Of a DNA stretch of 64,000 nt, positions 4,939-64,000 are shown in pieces. How positions within the stretch are numbered: position 1 is the stretch's first letter; every line of letters begins with the position of its first letter. The stretch lies in the IMG/VR virus record IMGVR_UViG_3300014205_000174, one strand, 5' to 3'. The position numbers were made by a program, and so were the translations under genes. The stretch is from a virus (lineage: Duplodnaviria > Caudoviricetes). Below the pieces are notes generated by a model. The model did no database searches. It was given only the letters and a program-made list of their open reading frames with translations, and was not told the origin of the DNA.

Positions 4939-5361
4939 ATGGAAAACAGAATTACATCGGAAAATATTACATCGCTCAAAGAAGGCGAGATATTTGTCTT
5001 CGGCTCCAACCTTTCGGGCAGACACGGCAAGTTTGCGGCCAAGCTTGCATTAAACTTTGGCGCTGTATGGGGCCAGGCTGCCGGCCTACAGGGAAACAGC
5101 TATGGCATTCCTACCAAAAACCATTCGATTACCAAAACGCTGCCTATTGACGAAATTAAACCCTATGTGGATAAATTTATCGCTGTGGCAAGGGAAAACA
5201 GCCATCTGACCTTTTTAGTTACCCAGGTTGGATGCGGGGCCGCTGGATATAAGCCAAAAGATATTGCGCCGCTCTTCCAGGAAGCCTTTGGCGTTGAGAA
5301 CATTCATCTCCCAAAATCATTCTGGCGCATCATTACCGCGCGTCACCTTAAAAAAAAATGA
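4939..5361 (+). CDS. A1S_2505-family phage protein (macro-domain-like)
   Basis: EIFVFGSNLSGRHG, GLQGNSYGIPT, FLVTQVGCGAAG motifs. Confidence 0.75.
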   Translation: MENRITSENITSLKEGEIFVFGSNLSGRHGKFAAKLALNFGAVWGQAAGLQGNSYGIPTKNHSITKTLPIDEIKPYVDKFIAVARENSHLTFLVTQVGCGAAGYKPKDIAPLFQEAFGVENIHLPKSFWRIITARHLKKK

Positions 5362-6170
5362 GCACAATGCCTGATTTCCTGTTTCAAATAAAGGGTAAAA
5401 ACGAACAGCGCGCGTGGCTATGGCCACCGCTGTGGACGGATAAGGTAACGGCCAGCGATGCCAAACAGGCCCGTTTAATGGTGGAGGAGCAGTTTGGTAT
5501 AAAAATGCCTGGACGTGTAATGCGCAAAGACATTGAAACACAGACCATCCTGCTTATTATCAAGGAAATTAAGCCAGAGGATACTTATACTTTGGCTATG
5601 TGGGATAAACACCAGTGTAAGTTGTGCGCAAAGGAGTACACGCTTGTCGAGCGCTATCAGTTAGGTTATAACGGAGGTGGGCAGGAATTTTGTTCCTACA
5701 AATGCAGCAAAGAATATAATACGGTAGCTTCTTACGTGGAAGCCTTTAACCAGAGTGGCAACGGCAAGCACCCGCCTGTTATTTATAAGGTTACCAACAA
5801 GATTAATGGCATGTGCTACATTGGCAAGACCATGCAGGCCTTTACCTTCAGGTGGTACCAGCACTTCTTCCAGGGCCGCACCAGCAAATTTCACAAAGCC
5901 ATTAAAACCTACGCATACACTGACTGGACATTTGAGGTCATAGAGATTGTGCAGCTCCCATCGGATACTAAGAACATATCCACCATGAATGATTTCATCT
6001 TCAGCCGGGAAATGCACTGGATTAACCACTATGACAGCATAAAGAATGGCTACAACTCGGTGAACTCAAAAAATGAATTCGAGGAGGAAGTAACGGATGT
6101 ACACCCAAATATTTCCAGTACTATTTTCGAATGCCTCGACAACCAACAAACTGTTGAAAACTCGCAGTAA
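5358..6170 (+). CDS. GIY-YIG nuclease with N-terminal zinc finger
   Basis: VIYKVTNKINGMCYIGKT, RWYQH, E..WI..YDS..NGYN; upstream CxxC...FCSxxC. Confidence 0.8.
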   Translation: MSTMPDFLFQIKGKNEQRAWLWPPLWTDKVTASDAKQARLMVEEQFGIKMPGRVMRKDIETQTILLIIKEIKPEDTYTLAMWDKHQCKLCAKEYTLVERYQLGYNGGGQEFCSYKCSKEYNTVASYVEAFNQSGNGKHPPVIYKVTNKINGMCYIGKTMQAFTFRWYQHFFQGRTSKFHKAIKTYAYTDWTFEVIEIVQLPSDTKNISTMNDFIFSREMHWINHYDSIKNGYNSVNSKNEFEEEVTDVHPNISSTIFECLDNQQTVENSQ

Positions 6171-11300: not shown

Positions 11301-12945
11301 GCAGGTGTAATTTCGGGAGATTATTTTGATTGTCGTTTTCGTTTAGCATATTTCTAATTTATAAAATAGTGGTATTTAAAATGCCCCGGACGCAATTAAC
11401 CTGTAGTGCTTCTCAGTTGGCTCCAGTAAACCAACATCAAAGATATCGTCGTCAGTTTTCTTTGGGTACCGTTTAAGAAACTTTTTCTTAGCATCTTCCT
11501 CGGTGGCAGCTTTAACTGGCTGCACCGCAGTACCCAGTTTACCCATAAACCATATCGTAAAAATTGGTAGTTTTTTCATGTTGTTGTTGATGTTAAGTTA
11601 CGCGTCCTTTGCGTTTATCAATACCTCTCCATCATCTCCGGGCGAGGCGTAGTCTACGGTTATTTTACCGTCTGTATTTTCCACAGAGGATATGTCTATT
11701 ATCACTTCTGCGTCCTGGTCTAAGTGGCGCAATTCCGACATCAATTGAGATACTGTCATTTTGATTAAGTTAAAGTTGAATTTATTTATAAAATCTTGTT
11801 TTCTTTTTTTAATACTTAACAATCTTTTCTTCAAAGTCAGCAAGAGTTATCTCACCGCTATTTAATTGCAGCAGCATTGACCTGCCATGCGCAACCCCCT
11901 CGTTATAAATCTTATTGCGCTCATTTGCAATCACCTCTTTTCTTTGAGTCTCTACAGATGCAAATCCATCGCGCAATTCTGCCTGTTGCAACCCTAATGC
12001 ATCTACAATTTTCTTTAACGCATCTGCATATTTCTTTGAGATAATTACGCTTTTTGATGAAGTGGTGGCGCTACAATCCGTTAAATCTACGCGACTGGTA
12101 AACCCAACCCGCCTGGCCATCGCATCCAAAAGTTCGAAAAAAGCCTCTTCTATTTCTACACCATGGTGTTCGTGATTATAGAATCTAAGTTTATACCACT
12201 GCGCACTTGCCATTGTATAGTCCTCTGGCCGATAATCATTCCTCAATTCCTTACCAATGGTGTATACCTTAAGGCAATCGTCACATAGTTTATTAATGTG
12301 TATGCGGGGGCACTCCTTGCCGGATTTCCCACAGCCCTGGCACGGCTTTTCACCTTCGTACTTTTTCATAGTTAATTTAATTCACCACAAGCATATCTAT
12401 CCTTGTAGTATTTTCCGTTTGTCAAATATTGTTGAAACTCCTTTTCGGTAATCATAATGGCCAATTCAATAGAAACCAAACAAAAAGGAACACGCCTTAC
12501 TACCCTGCGACCACACCTGCATTCATAAATAACCTCCCGCCAATTAAAGCTAACATACCTGGCAACTACCGGCACACTATGTAAATGAATATGCAACTTG
12601 CTTTTTATGTATTCAAAAATGCTCACCATATTAGCTGTATTGAAAGTTATTTCATTAGTTTTTCAACGTTTCTTATGCTTTCTTCGTCAACAGAAACCCA
12701 TGCATCTTCATACGTGGGCAGTATTAAGGCCTGTTCGTCATAACACAAAACATGGCCCTTTTTTCTTATTATAATCCGGGATTTTTGCCAAAACATATTT
12801 ACAAACTGCTTTGCGTATTCAATCGCCGCAAGTTCGTGATTGTCCGGGTACTTCTCCAACATCTGCTTTGCCGTTAGCAAATCTTTAGACCGCGTTGGAC
12901 TTACTGTAGAATGGTTTTCCATATTTTCGTTTATACACCCTGTAA

Positions 12946-12962
12946 TGCAAATCCCGTGCCAA
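12946..12962 (-). promoter_or_regulatory. sigma54-type promoter driving the leftward block
   Basis: Minus-strand TTGGCACGGGATTTGCA, 24 nt before ATG at 12922. Confidence 0.7.
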
Positions 12963-13014
12963 ATAAAAAGCGCTGGCAAAAAACCAGCGCTGTAGTATAT
13001 AATGTAAGATTATG

Positions 13015-13299
13015 CTATGAAACCACGTTCAAAGCACCAATAAGCCTATTTTCCATCTTCTTGCGCAGCTTGTCGCCGTGCTTGATGAATAAAATGCGAT
13101 GGGCCTGGTGATTTGCTCGCTCATTTGTTATATCGTATATCTTGGAAATGGTCACACCCATCTGGTCTGCCAGTTTCTCGCTCCAGTTAATATCCAGCCG
13201 CCTAAGCGATGCGGCCATGTCCTTTATATGGTCGATGGTGATTTCATTAACCACCTCATTACCATGCATTTTTTCAATATTTTCGGTATCGGTCTTCAT
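13015..13299 (-). CDS. putative HTH transcriptional regulator
   Basis: WSEKLADQMGVTISKIYDI HTH-like segment; preceded by TACATTTG promoter element; divergent from 13437. Confidence 0.5.
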   Translation of the reverse strand: MKTDTENIEKMHGNEVVNEITIDHIKDMAASLRRLDINWSEKLADQMGVTISKIYDITNERANHQAHRILFIKHGDKLRKKMENRLIGALNVVS

Positions 13300-13324
13300 T
13301 AAATAACTTTTCACAAATGTAAAA

Positions 13325-13376
13325 AAAGTTTGGGTTTTCTTTGTGGAAAGTTTGGAGAAAGTTTGGGTTTTCTTTG
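13325..13376. repeat. direct repeats, putative operators of a divergent switch
   Basis: AAAGTTTGGGTTTTCTTTG at 13325 and 13358, partial AAAGTTTGG at 13347. Confidence 0.7.
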
Positions 13377-13436
13377 GAATTTGTTAGAAAGTGTAAAAAA
13401 TCTTTCTTTACTTTGTCCCCCTCCAATTAGTTTTTT

Positions 13437-13703
13437 ATGTCCGTGATAACAAGGAAGCATATAGATATGGCCTCGAAGCTATACAAGATGATGGATTATG
13501 TAAAAGAAGCCAGATTACGGAGCCCGGATACATACAAAACCGTAGAGACGCTGCTTAAGAACTACTCCGCAGCACACAAACTTACTATCCTGGAAGCAGC
13601 AATAGAAATAGCAAAAGACCACGAAGGGATGCAAGTCATGTGGCTTCTGGGTGTAGCGGGTATCCTATCAGAAGAAAAAGAAGACGCGCCAGCCCCAACT
13701 TAG
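13437..13703 (+). CDS. hypothetical protein
   Basis: 88-aa ORF divergent from the HTH gene. Confidence 0.55.
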   Translation: MSVITRKHIDMASKLYKMMDYVKEARLRSPDTYKTVETLLKNYSAAHKLTILEAAIEIAKDHEGMQVMWLLGVAGILSEEKEDAPAPT

Positions 13704-13868
13704 TTATCCCACGCCAGCCCCAAACCACTATCAATAAATTAAACACCACTTACCTCCACATCCTACCTCATTAACTACCAGCAACTTACAACGCAATTAC
13801 TTTTTTATCGAAACCTAACTACAGTCCGCAATGGCCTTTTTTTTATCTCAAAAACTCTTTGTCGCTTA

Positions 13869-34228: not shown

Positions 34229-35428
34229 ATGTTGAAAGCATACAAATACCGCATATACCCTGACTGGAATCAGCGCAGCCTGATTAACCAGACGATGGGT
34301 TGTTGCCGATTAGTGTATAATTTGGCGCTGGAGACTAAGATACGTGCGTACAAGGAGCATGGGGTGAGTTTATCTGGCTTTGACCTTATCAACCAGTTTT
34401 CGGAAATGAAGAAGGACTACGACTGGATGAATATACCGTATAGTCACAGCATACAGTCGTCTATCCGCAACGTAGAGCGTGCATACAAGAACTTTTTTAA
34501 CGGAGCGGGGTATCCAAAATACAAAAAGAAAACCAGCCGACAGAGCTATGCCTGCCCTGACGGGAAAAGGCATATTGACTTCGATAAAAGTCTTCTAACA
34601 ATCCCCAAAATACCCGGCATTGCAATAAAGCTTGATAAGCGTGCTATAATGGGAGATATAAAGACCGTTACGGTTGCTAAAACACCAACCGACAAATACT
34701 ACGTCAGCATCCTGGTCGATACAAAGAAGGCGCTGCCGGAGAAGAAAACCATAGACCCGGACAAAACGGTAGGTATAGACCTTGGCCTTACGCACTTCAT
34801 CATACTGGATAACGGAGATAAGTTCGACAACCCGCGCTTTCTGCGAGAGCATCTTGATAGGTTGAAATACCTGCAAAGGAAAGCGTCAAGAAAACAAAAA
34901 GGCAGTAAGAACCGGAAGAAAGCAAATAAGCTGGTTGCTGCCCAACACGAGAAAATAGGCAACAAGCGTAATGATTATCTGCAAAAACTCAGTACTAAAT
35001 TAGTTGGCGATAACCAAGCTACTACATTCTGTATTGAGAACCTTGCAGTTGCAAACATGGTCAAGAACCATAAACTGGCCCTAAGCATAAGTGATGCAAG
35101 CTGGTCTGAGTTTATCCGCATGCTGAAGTATAAATCAGAGTGGGCGGGTAAGAACGTGATAGAAATAGGCCGGTTTGAGAAAAGCACGAAAACATGTTTC
35201 TGCTGTAAGCAGGTAAACGAGACGGTAGACCTCGCTGACCGGATATGGACATGCCAAGGCTGCAATACTACCCACGATAGGGACATAAATGCGGCAAAGA
35301 ATATAAAGGAAATGGGGCTGAGTGAAGCAGGGCGGGGTACGTCCAAAAAGTCTGTGGAGCCACGAAGATTACCTCGGGCGCGGAAGCAGGAAGTCAGTAA
35401 TTACAAAGGCATCTACCTTAAAGTATGA
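34229..35428 (+). CDS. tnpB: RNA-guided endonuclease TnpB (IS200/IS605 family), no adjacent TnpA
   Basis: MLKAYKYRIYP HTH; RuvC GIDLG, IENL, DRDINAA; CxxC...CxxC zinc ribbon. Confidence 0.92.
   Translation: MLKAYKYRIYPDWNQRSLINQTMGCCRLVYNLALETKIRAYKEHGVSLSGFDLINQFSEMKKDYDWMNIPYSHSIQSSIRNVERAYKNFFNGAGYPKYKKKTSRQSYACPDGKRHIDFDKSLLTIPKIPGIAIKLDKRAIMGDIKTVTVAKTPTDKYYVSILVDTKKALPEKKTIDPDKTVGIDLGLTHFIILDNGDKFDNPRFLREHLDRLKYLQRKASRKQKGSKNRKKANKLVAAQHEKIGNKRNDYLQKLSTKLVGDNQATTFCIENLAVANMVKNHKLALSISDASWSEFIRMLKYKSEWAGKNVIEIGRFEKSTKTCFCCKQVNETVDLADRIWTCQGCNTTHDRDINAAKNIKEMGLSEAGRGTSKKSVEPRRLPRARKQEVSNYKGIYLKV
35300..35415 (+). ncRNA. putative omegaRNA overlapping the tnpB 3' end; boundaries approximate
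   Basis: GGGCGGGGTACGTCC...CTGTGGAG...GAAGCAGGAAG scaffold-like motifs. Confidence 0.55.
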
Positions 35429-46763: not shown

Positions 46764-47015
46764 ATGAACTACCCGATTTTCGAAAAAGTACAGGATATCC
46801 TCTGTGACACATTTGGCATCAAGAGGGAGAAAGTCACTCTCGGTGCTGAGTTATCCCAGACACTGGACTTGGATTCCCTGGAGATAATTGAATTTGTTGT
46901 CGCGCTGGAAACGGAGTATAGCATCTCTATTCTTGCCGACACCTTTTCTGCCGACACGACCATAGAACAGGTGGTGGATTATTTAGAACAAAGAATAGCA
47001 GCTCACAAAAATTAA
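46764..47015 (+). CDS. acpP: acyl carrier protein
   Basis: LDLDSLEIIEFVVALE.EY.ISI phosphopantetheine site; acidic, 83 aa. Confidence 0.85.
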   Translation: MNYPIFEKVQDILCDTFGIKREKVTLGAELSQTLDLDSLEIIEFVVALETEYSISILADTFSADTTIEQVVDYLEQRIAAHKN

Positions 47016-47022
47016 GTAAAAC

Positions 47023-48303: not shown

Positions 48304-49617
48304 ATGAACAAACCAATAACTGTAAAAAAAGTAAAGCGCATGCTTATCCTTGCCGACTGGCATGGAGCGTCCACTGGTTTCGGTACCGTAACCAACAACA
48401 TCCTTCCATATATCCAGGCTCATTACGGCAAAGACCTGCTTATTGTAATGGTTGCCATTAATTATTTTGGCGAGGAATATACGGTTGGCAATCTTACCGT
48501 GGTGTCGGCAAAGAATTACTTTGTCCCGGAGCCGCAAGCGGCGGGAGAGGGCCAGCCAATGAAAGTAATTGAGCCCGACCCATTTGGCCGACACTCCTTC
48601 CTGCGGATACTGGCAATAGATGAGGTTGGGTTCGACCTTTGCTTCATCATACAGGACTTGTCCATCGTAAGCGACCTTGCGGTTACTATGAAGGAAATGA
48701 AGAAATACAAACAGGCCCAGAATAAGCGCAACTTTAAGTCTTTGGTGTATATGCCGGTAGATGCAAAGTTGACAAAAGCGGAACTGTATAACATTGATTT
48801 CTTCGACACCATTGTCACATACAATGAATTCTCCCGTAATGAAATTGTCAGGAACAGGCCGGAACTGCTGAAGAAGGTAAAAAAGATACCGCACGGTAAT
48901 TCCAGCAAGGACTTCTTCCCCATGCCGGAGCAGGAGGTTGCGGAATTCAGAAAAGCATACTTTGGCGACAATGCCGACAAAATAATATTTGCCAACATTA
49001 ACCGCAACCAGCCGAGAAAGGCAATCGGTGAAACCATTCTTGCGTTCATTGAGGCAAAAAAAGAATGGGCTCTTGAGCGCCAGCCGTTCCTGTACCTGCA
49101 CATGATGGAGAAAGACCCGCTGATGTGGGGTTATGACTTAAAGAAAATATTTGCGCAGACCGACCTGGTAGAGAACGTAGATTATATGATTGCACCACAG
49201 GAATTCTTTACCAAGAGCAATGGAGCGCCAATAAGCTTACTACGTAGTATCTACAATGCTGTAGACATCTGCATCACCACTACTACGGGCGAAGGCTGGG
49301 GCTTATCGGTCACCGAGGCTTTTGCCTGTCGCAAGCCGGTAATACTCCCGCTGAATACTTCGCTCATTGAAATCAGCAACAATGGGCAAAGGGCTTATGG
49401 CATGACCAATATGGTTCCCTTCATCAATGAGTTTGACCATGTTATCCGGGAGCAGACGGACATATATGAATGCGCTGATACAATGAAGGGGGCGGCAAAA
49501 AACTTGCTTTCCGGAATAGACAAGCCGATTATAGATGCTGCACAGCGGTATGTCGGCACCCTTACCTGGAAGTCGGTGTCCGATAAATTTATTGCATATT
49601 TCGATGAGTTGTTTTAG
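48304..49617 (+). CDS. glycosyltransferase family 4 (GT-B)
   Basis: TGFGTV, IPHG, NRNQPRK, YNAVD..., GEGWGLSVTEAFAC. Confidence 0.88.
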   Translation: MNKPITVKKVKRMLILADWHGASTGFGTVTNNILPYIQAHYGKDLLIVMVAINYFGEEYTVGNLTVVSAKNYFVPEPQAAGEGQPMKVIEPDPFGRHSFLRILAIDEVGFDLCFIIQDLSIVSDLAVTMKEMKKYKQAQNKRNFKSLVYMPVDAKLTKAELYNIDFFDTIVTYNEFSRNEIVRNRPELLKKVKKIPHGNSSKDFFPMPEQEVAEFRKAYFGDNADKIIFANINRNQPRKAIGETILAFIEAKKEWALERQPFLYLHMMEKDPLMWGYDLKKIFAQTDLVENVDYMIAPQEFFTKSNGAPISLLRSIYNAVDICITTTTGEGWGLSVTEAFACRKPVILPLNTSLIEISNNGQRAYGMTNMVPFINEFDHVIREQTDIYECADTMKGAAKNLLSGIDKPIIDAAQRYVGTLTWKSVSDKFIAYFDELF

Positions 49618-51380: not shown

Positions 51381-51776
51381 ATGGCAACAGGTCAAGCGAG
51401 CAAACCGAAAACAAAGGCAGTCAAAAGCGGTGTTGAGAAGTCAAAGGCTACCGCGAATAAAGCTGCGCATAAACCGACACCAGCCAAAGCGGATATGCCG
51501 TCTCTCGAAAAGAGAGTAGGTGCACTGGAGATGCTGCACGGGATTCCCCCTCGTGGCAATCCCGGAAACGGCCAAGGCCCTATAGCGGGTGCTTTTTCCG
51601 TGCCTTTTATCGGCCCTTTACTCATGAGTGATGATTGTGACGAGTGCAAGGAAGCTGCTTATCGTAAGCAAAAGCTGCAACGCAAAGTGGTTATGAATGT
51701 CTTTGTGATGGGTATAGGCGTAGGTATGATACTTTCCTCATTTATTATCTCCTCTCTTATGAGGCGGTACGACTAA
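51381..51776 (+). CDS. basic protein with C-terminal TM helix
   Basis: K/A-rich N-terminus, CxxC, hydrophobic C-terminus. Confidence 0.55.
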   Translation: MATGQASKPKTKAVKSGVEKSKATANKAAHKPTPAKADMPSLEKRVGALEMLHGIPPRGNPGNGQGPIAGAFSVPFIGPLLMSDDCDECKEAAYRKQKLQRKVVMNVFVMGIGVGMILSSFIISSLMRRYD

Positions 51777-51781
51777 AATAT

Positions 51782-54700
51782 ATGGGCGTAACAAAGGCCA
51801 CTAAAAATAAACCGACCAGTAAAAAGCCTTCTGCCGCGAAGGCCGGTGTTGTATTGCCTGTACCGGCAACGCCAGCTCAATTGCGCCGTCGCTGGAATAA
51901 AAAAACTAGCCAGGTGGAAAAGCTGGCAAATAATATCCAAAGCCTGCGGTATAATCTCACTACTGATATGAAGAGTGATGACCAGAAGGTGTTTCTGACG
52001 GCTCTTTGTGTAAAGTGCATGGAGCTTACTGGTGAGCGTGTCGGCAATGACGAAAGCGCTGCTAATGGGCATAGGGGTATTACTGGATTGCTTAAATCCC
52101 AGGTAAAGGTAGAAGGTAATAAGGTTTCATTCCGGTATACCGGTAAGTCCGGGGTTAACCAGGATAAATCCGTAACGGATGAAAAACTCGCTGATGGCAT
52201 ACGTCGTGCGAAGGAAATATCCAAAGCGAAGTATCTTTTTTGTACAGATGACGGGTTTAAGATAAAGAATGACCGCGTCAACAGGTATCTGGCTGACTTT
52301 GAGATTACGGCAAAGGACTTGAGGGGCTTTTCTGCCAACCGCTGGCTGATACAGAAGTTAGTGGCCAATGATATCGCTGACGAGGAGAAGGACAGAAAAA
52401 AAGACTTCAATGCATTTGCAAAGGTTGTTGCTGCGAAAGTGGGCCACGGTACCGGCATGCTGAAAAACCAATACCTCATACCGGGGTTGGAAAAGGCGTA
52501 TGTAGAGGAAGGCAAAATAATAGACATCAAGGATATTGCCGGATATAAAAAAGGTGGTGGCGTTGAAAAGATGGAAAAGGGTGGTGTTGTGGCTAAAAAA
52601 GAATCCACTAAAAAACCAAGTCCCAGTGAACCTGCGGGAAAGACAATAAAATATTCCGAGTTTAAAGAAGATATCCAAACGTTTATATTTCAGTTCCTAG
52701 AGGATAGCGGGGCTCCGGATAAGATTCTCGATAACCTATACCGCGCAAGGTTTGTGGTTAAGCCGTATCCTATAAAAAATATTTCTCCGGAAGTAAATGA
52801 GGCGTCCCTGGATAAAGACCGGGGTGTACAACATGCGGCAAAGTTCAAAAAAGACAAGTACCAGCCGGTAATATTTTTCAACAACAAACTGATTGATGGC
52901 TTCCACAGGGCCTATTCTGAAAAACAAAAGGGTGCATCGGTTCTGTATGGTATCGAGCTGTCTGATGTTTTGCATGAAAAGAAGGCGGAGCTGAAGGCCG
53001 GCGGCCAGGTATCCAAGCCCGACCCATTTAACGAATGGTTTGCCGGCAGTAAAGTTGTCGATAGCAAGGGCCAGCCACTTATTGTTTATCATGGCACCGA
53101 TGCTGAAAATATTACAACATTCAATATTGATTTAGTTCGCGATAAATTTGGTTTCTGGTTTTCTGACGATAAGGAGTTCTCGGAAATGTTTGGCACTACA
53201 GCCATACCGGTATACCTGTGCATTAAAAACCCGCATGTAATAAGCAAAGAAAAATGGGACGATATCCGACGTGCGCATGCAAAAGATGCAGTGTGGTTTG
53301 CATCATGGCGTGACCAGTTAATATCCAAAGGTAAAGATGCGCTGATAATTGAAAGCAGCGATACGACCTTTGCTGGCACGAAAATACGTAATCCAGAAAT
53401 TTATGCGGTATTCCATCCAACGCAAATAAAGCTTGCTGACGGCTCCAATACCACATTTGACGGCAACAACCCAGACATTCGATTTGAGAAGGGCGGCCAT
53501 ATATATCGCAGTGTTGGCATGGAAGGTTACCTGGTGGGTAAAAGCAGGTGTCCATATATCGGCAAAGAAAAAGAAATTGATGCTTACGACACGGATATCC
53601 GTTGCTTCGTTTCCGAAACCAACGATACCTACCGGTTTATTTATGTTGTAAACAAAAAGAATGTTTCCGTTCTTCATATTCAAAAGGAAGGTGCTGACTG
53701 GGTAATCCGCAATGCATTTACCTTAGAGCATCACCGCAGACATGGGTATGGCCGGAGTCTTTACCTTGAGGCGCAGAAACATTTGCGCAGAGTTGTATTT
53801 TCGTCCAATTTGAGCCAGGAAGGCAAGGCATTTAAAGAAAATGTTACTCTAGAAATGCATATTGGTAATAATACGGAAATCGGTAGGATTGACGATGAAA
53901 CAGATACCCAGTTTCAGATAAAAGGAACGTGGTATGCAAAATGGATAATAAAGCCAGCGGCGGTCGCTGAAGATAATGAAGGTATACTTGTTCCGGATAA
54001 GATAAAGCCGACGATGATTATATCTGCATTTTCAAATGAGATGGATTGGGATAAGGTAGAGCGGTATGCTGATATTATGAAGGAAAGTGGTATGGAGCAT
54101 GGTTTCCCTGCTATATCTGGGTATCCTATTATTATTGATGAAAACGAAATTGGAGACCAGTTTCTTACCGGTGAGGAAGTGTCTGAACATCATGTTGGTC
54201 AGTTAGCGTGGAAGGTAACCAACGGCCATCATCGTTCTTTGGGGGCCATAAAGGCAGCTCTGCCATGGATTGACGTTGAGCTTGATTATAGTACGGTAAC
54301 TAACATGGAGCGCCATAAGCGCACAAACGGCAAGTACTACGAATCTGGCGGCATTACCGAAGATGATGAACCGAAGTCGACATTAGACCAGCTAAAAGAA
54401 GATGTTTCCGCTTGCAGGAACTTTGACATTTTCAGGGGCAGAATTGCCCTGCGCGAACCAGATGAGGTTAACGAGATAATGACTGTCCTTGGTCTTGAAA
54501 AAGCAACTACCAGGGAAATTGGTGATATTAATCTGAAAAAGCTGAAGGACTTTTATACTCAGGAAAAGCGCATAGTAAATGAGCGTCGTAAGATAAGGGG
54601 CAATGAGGCGGCAGCTATCCGCACTGAAAAAAATGTTGAGAATATCTTTGACCTTGCTAAAATATTAGGTGACGACATGGATAAGGCTGTACTGGATTAC

Positions 54701-56251
54701 GAAGAAAAGAAAGCCGCTATCAAATACCCGGTACAATTAATTACCGTGGAGCCATCTATTTTAGATGTGCTCAATGGCCTTTCGGATAAAGGATGCAGGG
54801 CGCTGATAGTTGGTGGCGCTGTCCGTGACGCTATTCTGGGCATCACCCCGAAAGATATAGACATAGAGGTTTATAACATAACCTACGCAGACCTGAGCGA
54901 ATACTTATCGCAGTACGGGAGAGTTAACCTTGTTGGTAAGAACTTTGGGGTTATTAAGTTTAATCCGGCAGCAGGTGGAATGGAATACGACTTCTCCGTT
55001 CCAAGAAGGGAAAACAAGATAGGTGTAGGCCACAAAGAATTTGAAGTGACCTTTGATACCACCATGACCATAAAGGATGCCGCAATGCGCAGGGACTTTA
55101 CGTTTAACTCCCTTGCGTATGACCCGGTATCCAATACGGTGTATGATTACTTTAATGGCCTGATGGATATCCGGCTCAAAGTAATAAGGCACACGTCTGA
55201 AAAGTTTACTGAGGACGCGCTGAGAATACTCAGGGCCATGCAGTTCCAAGCCAGATTTGATTTCACCATCGCTGAGGATACCAATACCTTAATGCGGGAA
55301 ATGCTTACTACCTCTGATGAGTTTGCATCCTTGCCAAAGGAGCGTGTTTTCGAAGAGTGGTACAAGTGGGCCTCAAAGGGCGTCCGCCACGACCTTATAT
55401 TCTCGTTCATGCGGGATTGCGGCCTTATCGACTGCTACCCGGTATTAAAGGCGCTGGCAGAAACGCCGCAGGACGCTGTGTATCACCCGGAGGGGAATGT
55501 GGAGGTGCACACTACCTTATGTCTGACTTATATGGACTCTATCTTGTCCCGGATGCCGGATATCCCGGCTGACGAGAAAGTAGTGCTGGTAATGTCCACG
55601 CTGCTTCATGATGTCGGTAAGCCTGCAACTACAGAGGAGCAGCTAAAGAATGGCAGAATGACGATTACAAGCAATGGCCATGAGGCATTGGGCGGTAAGA
55701 TGTGTCATGATTTTTTACCTTCGCTTGGGTTCCATAAAGATTTGGTAGACCCTATAGCTAATATTGTAGCTAATCATTTGGCTGGCGTGAATATTACCAT
55801 GATACCGCATGAGAGTGGCAGGGTAAAGGCAGTAAAGAAGCTAAGTAAGCGATTGTACCCGGCAACTATCCAGCAATTGCTGCATGTGATGGATGCAGAC
55901 AGTAATGGGCGTGGCTGGGAAGAATACAAAGAACCTACCGGTGCAAAGGAGCTGACGACCATAGCCGCAGACATAAACGTGACGGACAGGCCCTATGAAT
56001 TTATACTTCTGGGGCGTCACCTTATAGAAGCAGGGCTAAAGCCGTCTCCTGCATTCGGGGAGATTTTACGTAAAGCAAACGAGGCCCAGTTAAACGGCGA
56101 ATTTAATGATATTACCGGTGGCAGGCAGTGGCTGAAGGATAATTTGGATAGCTTTGTCAATGGCGGCATTATTAGTGCACCAGTTGATTTGTTTGCCGAC
56201 TCGCCTGGTGCACCAGTTGTAAATAGTGCAGTGCCGGACTTATTTCAATAA
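51782..56251 (+). CDS. polyvalent protein: topoisomerase IB / ParB-like / ART-like / GNAT / ParB-like / CCA-adding enzyme with HD domain
   Basis: TopoIB R86, K122, R181, H222, Y231; IDGFHR; PLIVYHGT...GFWFS...E.YAVF.P.QIK; HRRHGYG; VTNGHHR; VGGAVRD..DIDIE, RRDFT.N, EDALRILR, HPEG.V..H, LLHDVGK. Confidence 0.85.
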   Translation: MGVTKATKNKPTSKKPSAAKAGVVLPVPATPAQLRRRWNKKTSQVEKLANNIQSLRYNLTTDMKSDDQKVFLTALCVKCMELTGERVGNDESAANGHRGITGLLKSQVKVEGNKVSFRYTGKSGVNQDKSVTDEKLADGIRRAKEISKAKYLFCTDDGFKIKNDRVNRYLADFEITAKDLRGFSANRWLIQKLVANDIADEEKDRKKDFNAFAKVVAAKVGHGTGMLKNQYLIPGLEKAYVEEGKIIDIKDIAGYKKGGGVEKMEKGGVVAKKESTKKPSPSEPAGKTIKYSEFKEDIQTFIFQFLEDSGAPDKILDNLYRARFVVKPYPIKNISPEVNEASLDKDRGVQHAAKFKKDKYQPVIFFNNKLIDGFHRAYSEKQKGASVLYGIELSDVLHEKKAELKAGGQVSKPDPFNEWFAGSKVVDSKGQPLIVYHGTDAENITTFNIDLVRDKFGFWFSDDKEFSEMFGTTAIPVYLCIKNPHVISKEKWDDIRRAHAKDAVWFASWRDQLISKGKDALIIESSDTTFAGTKIRNPEIYAVFHPTQIKLADGSNTTFDGNNPDIRFEKGGHIYRSVGMEGYLVGKSRCPYIGKEKEIDAYDTDIRCFVSETNDTYRFIYVVNKKNVSVLHIQKEGADWVIRNAFTLEHHRRHGYGRSLYLEAQKHLRRVVFSSNLSQEGKAFKENVTLEMHIGNNTEIGRIDDETDTQFQIKGTWYAKWIIKPAAVAEDNEGILVPDKIKPTMIISAFSNEMDWDKVERYADIMKESGMEHGFPAISGYPIIIDENEIGDQFLTGEEVSEHHVGQLAWKVTNGHHRSLGAIKAALPWIDVELDYSTVTNMERHKRTNGKYYESGGITEDDEPKSTLDQLKEDVSACRNFDIFRGRIALREPDEVNEIMTVLGLEKATTREIGDINLKKLKDFYTQEKRIVNERRKIRGNEAAAIRTEKNVENIFDLAKILGDDMDKAVLDYEEKKAAIKYPVQLITVEPSILDVLNGLSDKGCRALIVGGAVRDAILGITPKDIDIEVYNITYADLSEYLSQYGRVNLVGKNFGVIKFNPAAGGMEYDFSVPRRENKIGVGHKEFEVTFDTTMTIKDAAMRRDFTFNSLAYDPVSNTVYDYFNGLMDIRLKVIRHTSEKFTEDALRILRAMQFQARFDFTIAEDTNTLMREMLTTSDEFASLPKERVFEEWYKWASKGVRHDLIFSFMRDCGLIDCYPVLKALAETPQDAVYHPEGNVEVHTTLCLTYMDSILSRMPDIPADEKVVLVMSTLLHDVGKPATTEEQLKNGRMTITSNGHEALGGKMCHDFLPSLGFHKDLVDPIANIVANHLAGVNITMIPHESGRVKAVKKLSKRLYPATIQQLLHVMDADSNGRGWEEYKEPTGAKELTTIAADINVTDRPYEFILLGRHLIEAGLKPSPAFGEILRKANEAQLNGEFNDITGGRQWLKDNLDSFVNGGIISAPVDLFADSPGAPVVNSAVPDLFQ

Positions 56252-56271
56252 CACACGCTTAATCACACAAT

Positions 56272-58773
56272 ATGTCAGTAAAAACTTTACCAAAACCAAA
56301 TAGGGGTACTGGGTACCTGGCTGGCAAGCAGAACGGCAAGACTGTTATACATACAGATGGCGACCTTGGGGGCGTACTCGTTGGTGCGCGGCACAGCGAT
56401 GGCGGCATACCTGCTGTCAACGAGAGCACCAATAAGCCGCTGGAGGTGGAAAAGGGTGAGGTGAGCATTACGTCTAAGGCCGTGACCAATACTGAAGTAT
56501 ATAATTTTGATGGGCAAGAAATGACCGCTAAGGAAGTGCTTTCGAAAATAAATAGTGACGCCGGCGGGGTTAAGTTTAAAAAGGGCGGTACGGTTGAGCG
56601 TACCTATAGCCTGAATGGTCAGCAAATGACCGATAAGCAGATTGAGCAAAAACTGCATGGGAATAAAATTGAAGACAAAAGGGACGGGAATAAAATTTCC
56701 TACTCCGGTGGCGAAATTATAATTACCCGACCCGCTGTTATGTCTAAGGAGACCCATAATTTCTGCGGTAGTCAGCTTACGAACTTTCAAATCCTATCTA
56801 AGATTAATGTGGATAGTGGCGGCATAGCCTTTGCGGATGACAATGCAGACGTATCAGTAAAGCCTAATGACCTGGAATATGAATTTGGTGGGAAGGTCAT
56901 GAAGGGATATGAGATAGTTGAGCAATATGCATGCGGATGTAAAATGGAAGATGGTGGTGTGGTGAATGATTATCCAACTGTAAAGTTATCAACCATCAAG
57001 AAGCTGCAATGGTATGTGCGTCCTGACGGCAAGACAGAGTTACAGGCGGAAATTAATGGGGAGCATAAAAAAGCCGTATTTGATGATGCCGATAATAAAA
57101 TAGGCTATTATGGTTTATGTAATACTGCGGACAATGCACTTAAGTTACTTGAAAAGTATTTTAAGATAAAAATAAAACGCGATAAGTATCCTGGGTACTT
57201 TGATTCTGGTGGTGAAATAGCAGACACCGACTATGAAATAATTCCCGCAGAGAATAGCGGGCGTGGCGTGACAGAAAAAGTTCGTATTACTGATGATAAA
57301 GGCAGGGTGGCCGAATATTCTATTTTCGGCGGCGATATACCTTATGCCATACAGTGTGCGCGGCAATCATTAAAGTGGCAGCAGGAAATTGACGATATAG
57401 TTGGCCCTGAAGGGGATTTATCTGAATATGCACAGTCTATTTATGACAATGCGCTGACCAGGTATAAAAAAGCGGATGATAGAAAGAAAAAGGAACTATT
57501 GCGTAAGCTCAGGTTTAATATATCCATGATTAGGCCCGTTCTTAATTCAGTACAGGCTGGCAGTATTGAAAACATAGAATTTGTCCGCGCCGGTGAAAAA
57601 TTCCTCAAAGACCACGCCCCTGATTTCATGAGACATGGTGGTGTCGCAGAAGGCGGCAGGCAGTCAAACTTTGATTTCCTCAGTGAAAAAATATCCTCTG
57701 GTGATTTAATCATTGACCGTAATGGCATAGTGAGAACATACGCATGGCATAGCGGTGATGGCAGGCTCGTCGTTGAATCCGATAATATACCAAGCCGCCA
57801 TGGGCCAGTTACTATGTACAAAATAAAAGTAGACGGTGTTGAAAAAGAAACTACCGATGATTACGCCATGGCCCTGAATCATACGCGGGAATATTTCTTA
57901 AAGCATCAGGCTGGCTCTCACATGGAAGAAGGGGGCGTTATAGAAAGCCTTACTCCTCAGCAGCAATATGACATAGGGAATTACCTGCCAGTTAGAATAG
58001 GAGGCATAAATAATGGGTGTGCCTGGGCTGACGTATTTAATGACGAGGGCCTGCTATCTTCGGAGCCGAAGTCGCTGGATTACTATTATCAGATTGCCAT
58101 TAAAATAAAACCCGGAGCGGCATACCTTGAAAGGGAGGGGTTCTGGGATGATTTCGCAGACCGCATGGAAGAGTTAGGGCGGCCGTTGTCGTATGAGCAA
58201 GGCGGTAGGCTCCAGGGTCGGGAAAATTGCACTTACGAGCAACTGGTTGCAAAATATCCAATGCGTGACGGCTATAGCATCGGCAATCTCCAGCTCGATA
58301 ATGCTGCAACGGGTAAGACTACACCCTATTGCGTTGTAAATAAAAAAACCGGTGTATTAAATAAGCATGGGCGTGATGAAATGGAAGTTGTAGCATATTA
58401 CCAGCAGATAGGGCAAAATACACTGCAACTATGCGAAAATCCATATGCTGCACGTAGCCAGGAGAAAGCGTTGGATAAGGACGTTATTGAAGATGTGTCC
58501 ATAGAAATGGCTGATGTTAGTCAGGATAGTATGGAAGATAATATAGCAGAATGCATAAAAAACCAGAATGCTCTTTACAAAAAAGTCAAGGCATCGAACT
58601 GGGACAGGCTTGCGAAAGCTACTTTTTATAGCATGAAACTTACTGAAGCAAAGGCTAATTTCAGTACGTATCAAAATATAGAAGGGGAATTCATGTCGGA
58701 ACTAATGAATATGTGCGATTGGTTGATGAACAAGTGGCAGAATGCGCTTGACGAGGTGCGGGTGCAAAAGTAG
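56272..58773 (+). CDS. large multidomain protein with repeated xxGG linkers
   Basis: GGVLVGARHSDGGI...EVEKGE domain, partly duplicated; seven [FYM]xxGG motifs. Confidence 0.65.
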   Translation: MSVKTLPKPNRGTGYLAGKQNGKTVIHTDGDLGGVLVGARHSDGGIPAVNESTNKPLEVEKGEVSITSKAVTNTEVYNFDGQEMTAKEVLSKINSDAGGVKFKKGGTVERTYSLNGQQMTDKQIEQKLHGNKIEDKRDGNKISYSGGEIIITRPAVMSKETHNFCGSQLTNFQILSKINVDSGGIAFADDNADVSVKPNDLEYEFGGKVMKGYEIVEQYACGCKMEDGGVVNDYPTVKLSTIKKLQWYVRPDGKTELQAEINGEHKKAVFDDADNKIGYYGLCNTADNALKLLEKYFKIKIKRDKYPGYFDSGGEIADTDYEIIPAENSGRGVTEKVRITDDKGRVAEYSIFGGDIPYAIQCARQSLKWQQEIDDIVGPEGDLSEYAQSIYDNALTRYKKADDRKKKELLRKLRFNISMIRPVLNSVQAGSIENIEFVRAGEKFLKDHAPDFMRHGGVAEGGRQSNFDFLSEKISSGDLIIDRNGIVRTYAWHSGDGRLVVESDNIPSRHGPVTMYKIKVDGVEKETTDDYAMALNHTREYFLKHQAGSHMEEGGVIESLTPQQQYDIGNYLPVRIGGINNGCAWADVFNDEGLLSSEPKSLDYYYQIAIKIKPGAAYLEREGFWDDFADRMEELGRPLSYEQGGRLQGRENCTYEQLVAKYPMRDGYSIGNLQLDNAATGKTTPYCVVNKKTGVLNKHGRDEMEVVAYYQQIGQNTLQLCENPYAARSQEKALDKDVIEDVSIEMADVSQDSMEDNIAECIKNQNALYKKVKASNWDRLAKATFYSMKLTEAKANFSTYQNIEGEFMSELMNMCDWLMNKWQNALDEVRVQK

Positions 58774-63380: not shown

Positions 63381-64000
63381 ATGGCGGATACAACCCTTAA
63401 GGAATTAACGGAGATTGTAGAAAATGATGGTAAAAGATTAGAAAAAAATCTTTCCATTGTAAGTGATGTTATTGTAAAGGAGGAGACTATCTATGACGGC
63501 ACCGATGCCGGAGAAGATGAATTTAAAGTGATACCCACGCCGAATTTTAGCGATGCAAAATCTGTAGGTACCGTGCTCCCTATCAACATGGTGAGCGAAA
63601 CGGTAAATAATCTTTCCCAGTTAGCCAACCAGTTTGACCTGGTAGACCATGTAAAGGAAAAACTAAATTACGCAAGCAGGATTGAGGTGATACGTATATT
63701 CTCCAGTGAGCAGGTGGACGCCATTGTGTTGGCTATCCGCCAGTTTGAGAAAGGGAATGCCTTTATCCTTGGTGATTCTGCCGGTATAGGTAAGGGCCGC
63801 GTTGTTGCGGGCATGCTTCGTTACGCATACCAGAACAAGCATATCCCTATATTCGTTACACATAAGCCATTCCTGTTTTCGGATATCTATCGCGACATTA
63901 AAAAAATAGGTGGTTTTGGCGCTGAGAAAGCTGGCAAAATCATTGAGCCGGTACCATTTATTTTAAATTCAGGCAATAAAGAAGAATGCATCATCAAGGA
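63381..64000 (+). CDS. strawberry-notch family SF2 helicase, 5' part (runs off the window)
   Basis: Open from ATG 63381: SSEQVDAIVLAI...AFILGDSAGIGKGRVVAG...LFSDIYRDI; missing from the ORF track because no stop is in the window. Confidence 0.8.
   Translation, partial: MADTTLKELTEIVENDGKRLEKNLSIVSDVIVKEETIYDGTDAGEDEFKVIPTPNFSDAKSVGTVLPINMVSETVNNLSQLANQFDLVDHVKEKLNYASRIEVIRIFSSEQVDAIVLAIRQFEKGNAFILGDSAGIGKGRVVAGMLRYAYQNKHIPIFVTHKPFLFSDIYRDIKKIGGFGAEKAGKIIEPVPFILNSGNKEECIIK

Follow-up and report, generated by a model that had tools for sequence, protein, structure and literature searches.

The question raised by the stretch of viral DNA analyzed here (64,000 nucleotides of IMG/VR record IMGVR_UViG_3300014205_000174; Duplodnaviria, Caudoviricetes; referred to below as the window) is whether the very long gene at positions 51782..56251 (+ strand) encodes one real protein and, if so, what kind of protein joins a type IB topoisomerase (Topo IB), an ADP-ribosyltransferase (ART), a GNAT acetyltransferase, ParB-like domains and a CCA-adding enzyme with an HD domain in a single chain. 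As judged from its sequence, the gene product is shown to be a genuine polyvalent protein, being a chain of autonomous enzyme modules, in which the predicted catalytic residues of the Topo IB module, of the CCA/HD module and of the second of two ParB/Srx domains are kept. Each of these modules recurs elsewhere, either as a stand-alone protein or in another order.

The gene consists of a single open reading frame of 1489 codons and a stop codon, with a frame that stays open for 4470 nucleotides without an internal stop, and it is located on a contig of 211,455 bp. As the sequence is metagenomic, and as the Topo module is a separate gene in one relative, the alternative has to be considered that the long reading frame is an artefact in which separate genes have been joined, either by chimeric assembly or by fusion of frames. 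Against this stands, besides the 4470 nucleotides of uninterrupted frame, the 49-kb Logan contig L001 (run SRR6484325), produced by a different assembly pipeline from that of the window's record, which corresponds to positions 41782-64000 of the window and is identical to it in 22,219 of the 22,219 shared base pairs, the gene included. In addition, the individual junctions of the protein are seen again in other proteins: the junction from ART to GNAT in P0033, the junction from the unmatched module to the CCA module in P0002, P0004 and P0006, and an N-terminal Topo module followed by further modules in P0002, P0009, P0010 and P0034. The identical second assembly and the recurrence of these junctions in unrelated proteins make a chimera very unlikely, and an artefact of either kind has a negligible probability. 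The preliminary description, in which one fused gene was proposed and an assembly chimera was named among the findings that would overturn it, is therefore upheld in this respect. No recognizable Shine-Dalgarno sequence precedes the ATG codon of this gene (51760-51784) or that of the next gene (56255-56274), and a scan for sigma-70 promoters and terminators around the gene gives nothing usable. A Bacteroidota-type promoter signal was considered as an indication of the host and dropped, the TAnnTTTG pattern occurring 55 times in the window against 73 expected occurrences and the extended -33/-7 pattern occurring 2 times against 1.7 expected.

Polyvalent proteins have been defined by Iyer, Burroughs, Anand, de Souza and Aravind in 2017 (PMC5512222), who list among their domains ART, GNAT, kinases, minimal Pol-beta nucleotidyltransferases, DdrB-like ParB and others. 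The protein of the window has the properties of this class. It combines at least two unrelated enzymatic domains (Topo IB, ART, GNAT, ParB/Srx, the CCA nucleotidyltransferase and HD), it has the hallmark ART-PolyVal domain together with mosaic shuffling of modules in its relatives, and it is encoded by a phage or a conjugative element, as indicated by the 211-kb contig and by matches to PHROG families. The relatives were collected by a protein family search covering 5.8 billion clusters, which gives a family set of 85 relatives, and the order of the modules is shuffled among these 85 proteins. ART-PolyVal is present in 16 of the 21 relatives bearing a Topo or a CCA module, which also carry Kinase-PolyVal, LPD3, DUF3990 and NUDIX domains. 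It is the ART-PolyVal hallmark, taken with the shuffled Kinase-PolyVal, LPD3, DUF3990, NUDIX and GNAT modules of the relatives, on which the assignment to the polyvalent proteins is based, in agreement with what had been proposed from the letters of the gene alone. The same Topo module is found in at least 14 other metagenomic clusters of polyvalent proteins, most of which also have ART-PolyVal, while different ones have GNAT, NUDIX or Kinase-PolyVal. Topo, ART and CCA modules occur together in P0002 and P0003, and ART and CCA modules without Topo in P0004, P0005, P0006, P0008 and P0013.

That a combination with Topo IB and a complete CCA/HD enzyme is not known from such proteins, as the preliminary description has it, agrees with the founding paper. 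In the text of the founding paper the word "topoisomerase" appears once, in the title of a reference, and "CCA" and "HD domain" never appear (PMC5512222); likewise, no description of Topo IB within polyvalent proteins was found in full-text literature searches. The Topo IB and CCA/HD enzyme types are new to the polyvalent class relative to that paper. The architecture itself is not unique, given the other Topo-bearing clusters, two of which have ART and CCA as well. At the nucleotide level, the gene has no match among 50,697 phage records searched with megablast, and a scan of IMG/VR with the whole protein gives no relative.

The first enzyme of the chain is the Topo IB catalytic domain (residues 40-251, 51899..52534, + strand; all features described below are on this strand). 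Residues 40-226 are matched by the Pfam family Topoisom_I (PF01028) with an E-value of 1.3e-16 and a score of 61.1 bits, the cut-off being 23.7, and the closest solved structure, as found by phmmer, is that of Deinococcus radiodurans TopIB (PDB entry 2f4q; E 1.8e-14). In the alignment with this structure, R86, K122, R181, H222 and Y231 pair with R137, K174, R239, N280 and Y289, which we take from the literature to be the catalytic residues of the D. radiodurans enzyme. The intact pentad of the preliminary description, with the His-Tyr spacing of 9 residues known from the vaccinia enzyme, is confirmed by this alignment. The pentad is invariant across 15 homologous modules of polyvalent proteins, except for one change of His into Asn, and Asn is also the state in 2f4q at this position. 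The N-terminal part is different. Residue 40 of the protein pairs with residue 90 of the 2f4q chain and only 39 residues precede the aligned core, from which it follows that the usual N-terminal DNA-binding domain of TopIB is missing. In its place there is a basic low-complexity tail (residues 1-39, 51782..51898), recognized by its composition, the first 40 positions including 10 Lys or Arg residues and neither Asp nor Glu, which replaces the N-terminal domain of the bacterial and poxviral enzymes. The module is a predicted type IB topoisomerase reduced to its catalytic domain, with the pentad kept.

The ART-PolyVal domain (residues 416-574, 53027..53503) is matched by its Pfam family over residues 427-559 (E 4.6e-20; 73.3 bits against a cut-off of 31.2) and ends with NPDIRFEKGG. 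The active site of this family is composed of His, Tyr and Asp (PMC5512222), and when 46 copies are aligned, H437 and D519 occupy the columns of the conserved His (strand 1) and Asp (strand 5). More variable is the column of the Tyr (strand 2), with Y in 22, F in 14, H in 4 and W in 3 of the 46 copies, and it is occupied by W459 in the protein of the window. The next region (residues 575-690, 53504..53851) is matched only below threshold by the Pfam GNAT models when used as a single sequence (E 0.013). An exhaustive search with residues 570-1000 finds many stand-alone proteins of about 115 residues that match residues 575-690, and the acetyl-CoA-binding motif A (R/Q-x-x-G-x-G/A) is present as RRHGYG, the consensus of the homologues being RRKGYA with a near-invariant R and G. 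A profile made from 30 of these homologues matches RibT (PDB entry 5xxr; 8e-5) and RimI (1e-3), and acetyltransferases make up 19 of the 20 rows listed. This region is predicted to be a minimal RimI/RibT-like GNAT acetyltransferase, which fits the description of a RimI-like GNAT adjoining ART in the polyvalent proteins of phages (PMC5512222).

The C-terminal third of the protein is occupied by the CCA/HD module, composed of the head, neck and body of a class II nucleotidyltransferase (residues 1000-1230, 54779..55471) and of an HD phosphohydrolase with the C-terminal part of the module (residues 1231-1461, 55472..56164), which ends with FVNGG. The Pfam PolyA_pol head is matched with an E-value of 3.9e-21 and HD with 2.4e-6; the tRNA nucleotidyltransferase family phrog_2244 matches across residues 1007-1440 (E 1.5e-69), solved CCA-adding enzymes and poly(A) polymerases of the PDB match at about 1e-18, and among the NCBIfam models the best match is to NF008137 for multifunctional CCA addition/repair (residues 1008-1400, E 9e-52). 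The class II motifs A-E are complete (GGAVRD/DIDIE, RRDFTFN, DYFNGLMDI, EDALR and ERVFEEW), as is the HD motif (HPEGNVEVH, LLHDVGKP). By these motifs the module is a complete class II CCA-adding-like enzyme with an HD domain, and a predicted divergent relative of Escherichia coli Cca. The FVNGG end of the module is conserved in P0003, P0007 and P0008. Beyond this last GG there is a tail of 27 residues (56168..56248) with two [PV]DLF motifs, a pattern that is almost absent from the relatives.

Between these enzymes there are regions that are less easily recognized. Stand-alone proteins of about 120-130 residues match residues 733-852 (53978..54337), sharing a V-T-D-G-H-H-R motif with invariant His-Arg, and DGHHR is invariant in the 28 sequences of the alignment of this region (A2). 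As the A2 profile has no significant match among the PDB sequences, a fold search was required. The AlphaFold2 model calculated from A2 has a predicted local distance difference test (pLDDT) score of 83.5 overall and above 95 across the core; the best Foldseek rows are sulfiredoxin and ParB (E 4e-3, probability 1.00), and VIA-align superimposes the model on Myxococcus xanthus ParB with a Z score of 8.9 and a root mean square deviation of 2.9 over 79 residues. The first 32 VIA rows all belong to the ParB/Srx superfamily (ParB, Noc, KorB, sulfiredoxin, SerK, SbnI and PadC). Going by this model, residues 733-852 are a clear ParB/Srx domain. A second such domain, nearer to the N terminus (residues 287-405, 52640..52996), is probable. 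Its L-I-D-G-F-H-R motif is conserved in residues 53-180 of P0004, to which it is 46% identical, and the top 24 Foldseek rows listed for its model are all ParB/Srx, but with weak E-values of 0.036-2.5. P0004, obtained from the search with the whole protein, is the sole homologue of residues 280-425; word-indexed searches with this region for homologues of near and of shorter length return only the protein itself. An hhalign comparison of residues 280-425 with the A2 profile gives a probability of only 4.6%, and the Atlas feature search gives leads only, with scores of at most 0.90, among which there is a single viral cluster in which 21% of the members carry ParB_N. Neither of the two ParB-like regions is matched by the Pfam ParB models at E <= 10. 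Domain 2 is preceded by a small β-barrel of SH3/Sm-like type, assigned with low confidence (residues 692-725, 53855..53956; strands 11-44 of the AlphaFold2 model), which has a weak likeness to SH3 and Hfq (Z about 4) and is common to the stand-alone proteins P0092, P0103 and P0107. The remaining module (residues 858-995, 54353..54766) has its only homologues in the C-terminal parts of P0009 and P0010, with 42-43% identity; residues 853-995 have no Pfam match above chance and no Atlas match. The domain inventory given in the preliminary description is therefore correct but slightly understated, there being two ParB/Srx-like domains and, besides, a small β-barrel and one unmatched module.

Each boundary between modules bears a conserved, recurrent motif. 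Six of the 10 Gly-Gly pairs of the protein are at module ends, with the first Gly at positions 258, 267, 407, 571, 856 and 1461, and each of the six is found in the context [FYML]-x-x-G-G followed by x-[VI]. The Topo module ends with a double version, YKKGG and MEKGG (residues 255-272, 52544..52597). The family set of 85 proteins contains 572 copies of the motif, compared with 118 expected from shuffled sequences, and the motif is nearly absent from non-polyvalent CCA homologues. ART modules have the conserved end QIKLADG-NTTFD--NPDIR---GG, and the motif terminates those CCA modules that precede another module, whereas C-terminal CCA modules stop just short of it. In the text of PMC5512222 the words "glycine" and "linker" occur 0 times each and this [FYML]xxGG punctuation is not mentioned. 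The motif probably provides flexible joints or protease sites by which the modules would be set free.

The latter possibility leads to an alternative in which the protein is a viral polyprotein, made in the infected cell and cut at [FYML]xxGG into free enzymes, and is not cargo delivered with the DNA; the fusion would then be a mere device for expression or stoichiometry. This alternative agrees with the about 5-fold enrichment of the motif, exactly at module ends, and with the finding that modules encoded by separate genes terminate at the same motif. On contig L003 a stand-alone Topo IB gene of 270 codons (5104-5916), 63% identical to the module of the window, ends 9 residues past Y-K-H-G-G and lies 85 bp upstream of the gene of the polyvalent protein P0004 (L003:6001-11184), which itself has a C39-like peptidase domain at its C terminus (residues 1618-1720). 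Peptidases of the C39 family cleave after Gly-Gly. Also in favor of this alternative, the gene that follows in the window (56272-58773, +) encodes a protein of 833 residues without Pfam or PHROG match, in which 10 of the 15 Gly-Gly pairs occur as hydrophobic-x-x-G-G, which gives it the look of another modular protein with such punctuation. It is weakened by the finding of the C39-like domain in only 1 of the 21 relatives, by the absence of a peptidase domain in the protein and in its window neighbors, and by the position of the hydrophobic residue, which is at -5 from the putative cut, as compared with -4 in double-glycine leaders. Moreover, processing and delivery in the virion are compatible with each other. 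A polyprotein that is not delivered is accordingly considered to be a possible but rather unlikely explanation, although it has a better chance than the other alternatives discussed here.

The genomic surroundings are phage-like, the window containing homing endonucleases, a DNA methyltransferase, a TnpB and a phage tRNA nucleotidyltransferase (by PHROG matches), while most open reading frames have no match. Upstream of the polyvalent gene there is an acyl-carrier-protein-like gene (PP-binding; 46765-47016, derived from L001:4983-5234) and a glycosyltransferase gene (48304-49617, +), and this pair is syntenic in L006. Downstream, at 63381-64000 (+), the window includes the start of a gene for an AAA_34/Helicase_C_4 helicase of 1555 residues (strawberry-notch, Sno-like; L001:21600-24470). 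The same helicase, followed by a MoxR AAA and LPD23, is found downstream of the gene of the Topo-bearing polyvalent protein P0035 in L007, and the L007 protein is present on 21 contigs. No type IV secretion system genes are seen in the window. The TnpB-type transposase of the window (34229-35428) matches phrog_506 with an E-value of 1e-116. In L006, an IS605 OrfB/TnpB gene (12619-13830) directly follows the gene of P0010, an orthologous and shorter polyvalent protein.

Is the fusion then simply a housekeeping enzyme of a large phage, in which Topo IB serves replication or transcription of its own large genome and CCA/HD serves its tRNAs, without any role in conflict with the host? Stand-alone topoisomerase I proteins of the tyrosine-recombinase fold are indeed known from the jumbo phages phiRSL1, Lu11 and PaBG, and CCA-adding enzymes are known from many jumbo phages, not as parts of polyvalent proteins, according to a survey of 2021 (PMC7824862). 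Such a role is assumed for the stand-alone Topo IB that some jumbo phages encode. This is also in agreement with the deposited phages, where Topo IB is matched in 6 of the 50,697 records, five of 227-229 kb and one of 485 kb, in each case as a separate protein. The enzymes of the window, however, are fused with the typical conflict domains ART-PolyVal, GNAT and ParB/Srx, the Topo module of the relatives adjoins NUDIX, kinase and multiple copies of ART, and the relatives differ in the order of their domains, a shuffling that is also seen in conflict proteins. In addition, the window has no tRNA or tmRNA genes as predicted by ARAGORN, and Rfam gives no match at gathering scores anywhere in it. 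A purely housekeeping fusion is therefore regarded as unlikely.

The explanation that we prefer, and consider to be probable, is that of a polyvalent protein of a large phage-like element that provides a multi-effector package for host takeover and counter-defence, ready for infection or acting very early in it. We infer its delivery with the DNA, its early action, the targets of its modules and the processing at the GG motif from the analogy with known proteins. In such a package, Topo IB would relax or nick DNA without ATP, as can be compared with the topoisomerase of vaccinia, which is packaged in the virion and aids early transcription and is taken here as a functional analogy. Host proteins would be the substrates for modification by ART and GNAT, the ParB/Srx domains would act as NTP-dependent nickases or as NTPases, and CCA/HD may rebuild tRNA 3' ends that have been damaged or blocked by tRNA-directed immunity of the host, or may mature the tRNAs of the phage itself.

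Several observations weigh against this explanation. Without its N-terminal DNA-clamping domain, the predicted Topo IB could be a weak or nick-prone enzyme and not a relaxase, and the Trp at the Tyr position of the family makes the ART activity uncertain, that is, plausible but not assured. With 176.2 bits, NF008137 is matched far short of its equivalog cut-off (451), so that the CCA module could be specific for CCA, A or poly(A). For ParB/Srx-like domain 1, the AlphaFold2 model calculated from two sequences is poor (pLDDT 65.8), and the VIA search, although its top 7 of 48,161 representative chains are ParB/Srx, does not exceed a Z score of 3.9. The scarcity of candidate GG-specific peptidases, mentioned above, counts here as well. 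Finally, no virion, portal, terminase or other structural gene is present in the window, so that nothing ties the polyvalent gene to late or structural expression.

A more far-reaching version of the preferred explanation, in which delivery and the GG motif are given a larger part, can be put forward only tentatively and is rather unlikely. According to this version, cells infected by phages of one lineage of large phages would receive a ready-made Topo IB and a tRNA 3'-end repair enzyme (CCA-adding plus HD phosphohydrolase) as parts of a polyvalent protein, either packaged with the DNA or by way of [FYML]xxGG cleavage. Host immunity that acts on tRNA acceptor ends by cutting, extending or phosphorylating them would be forestalled by the tRNA module, relaxation or nicking of DNA by the clamp-less Topo IB would precede the expression of any phage gene, and the GG motif would be an unrecognized processing or packaging signal of the whole modular family.

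It is believed that, of all the proteins of a phage, the host meets the polyvalent proteins first, and almost none of them has been tested. The family described here adds two enzyme activities for which there are simple and decisive assays, being plasmid relaxation on the one hand and CCA addition or tRNA end repair on the other. Each piece should be easy to express alone, as the module boundaries are clean, as seen from the GG motif and from the existence of stand-alone versions of the modules, and these boundaries also give a testable hypothesis on the processing of giant proteins. If delivery is true, a delivered Topo IB would be the bacterial-virus parallel to the virion topoisomerase of poxviruses, and a delivered CCA/HD enzyme would point to damage of tRNA acceptor ends as a common host defence that requires an immediate answer of the phage.

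When compared with known systems, the protein is most similar to the polyvalent proteins of PMC5512222, with which it shares the giant polypeptide of unrelated enzymes, ART-PolyVal as the commonest domain of the class with an adjoining RimI-like GNAT, the ParB/Srx domains, the wide shuffling of modules among relatives, and helicase, methylase and zincin (LPD23) genes nearby. It differs from them in the presence of a type IB topoisomerase and a full CCA-adding/HD enzyme, and in having ParB/Srx domains beyond the reach of the Pfam ParB models at E <= 10. Phage T4 Alt is the model for an ART that is injected with the DNA and modifies the host RNA polymerase, a precedent cited in PMC5512222; Alt belongs to the R-S-E clade, whereas the ART of the window is of the H-Y-D clade with Trp for Tyr. 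With vaccinia Top1 and D. radiodurans TopIB (2f4q) about 210 residues can be aligned, with a complete R-K-R-H-Y pentad and the His-Tyr spacing of 9, but their N-terminal domain of about 80-90 residues has no counterpart in the phage module, which has the basic tail instead and forms part of a chain of several enzymes; where the phage module has His, Asn is found in 2f4q. The Topo IB proteins of jumbo phages (phiRSL1, Lu11 and PaBG in PMC7824862, and Xanthomonas PhiXhv-12/15/16) are likewise encoded by phages, with genomes of more than 200 kb, but these are separate proteins of about 500-670 residues, 28-38% identical to the module and not fused to conflict domains. The CCA/HD module resembles E. 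coli Cca and the phage tRNA nucleotidyltransferases (phrog_2244) in having the class II head with motifs A-E followed by the HD domain. It differs from the E. coli type in remaining below the equivalog cut-off (176 versus 451 bits), and from the deposited phage enzymes in being at most about 32% identical to any of them. These are all free enzymes, whereas here the same type of enzyme is the C-terminal module of a polyvalent protein.

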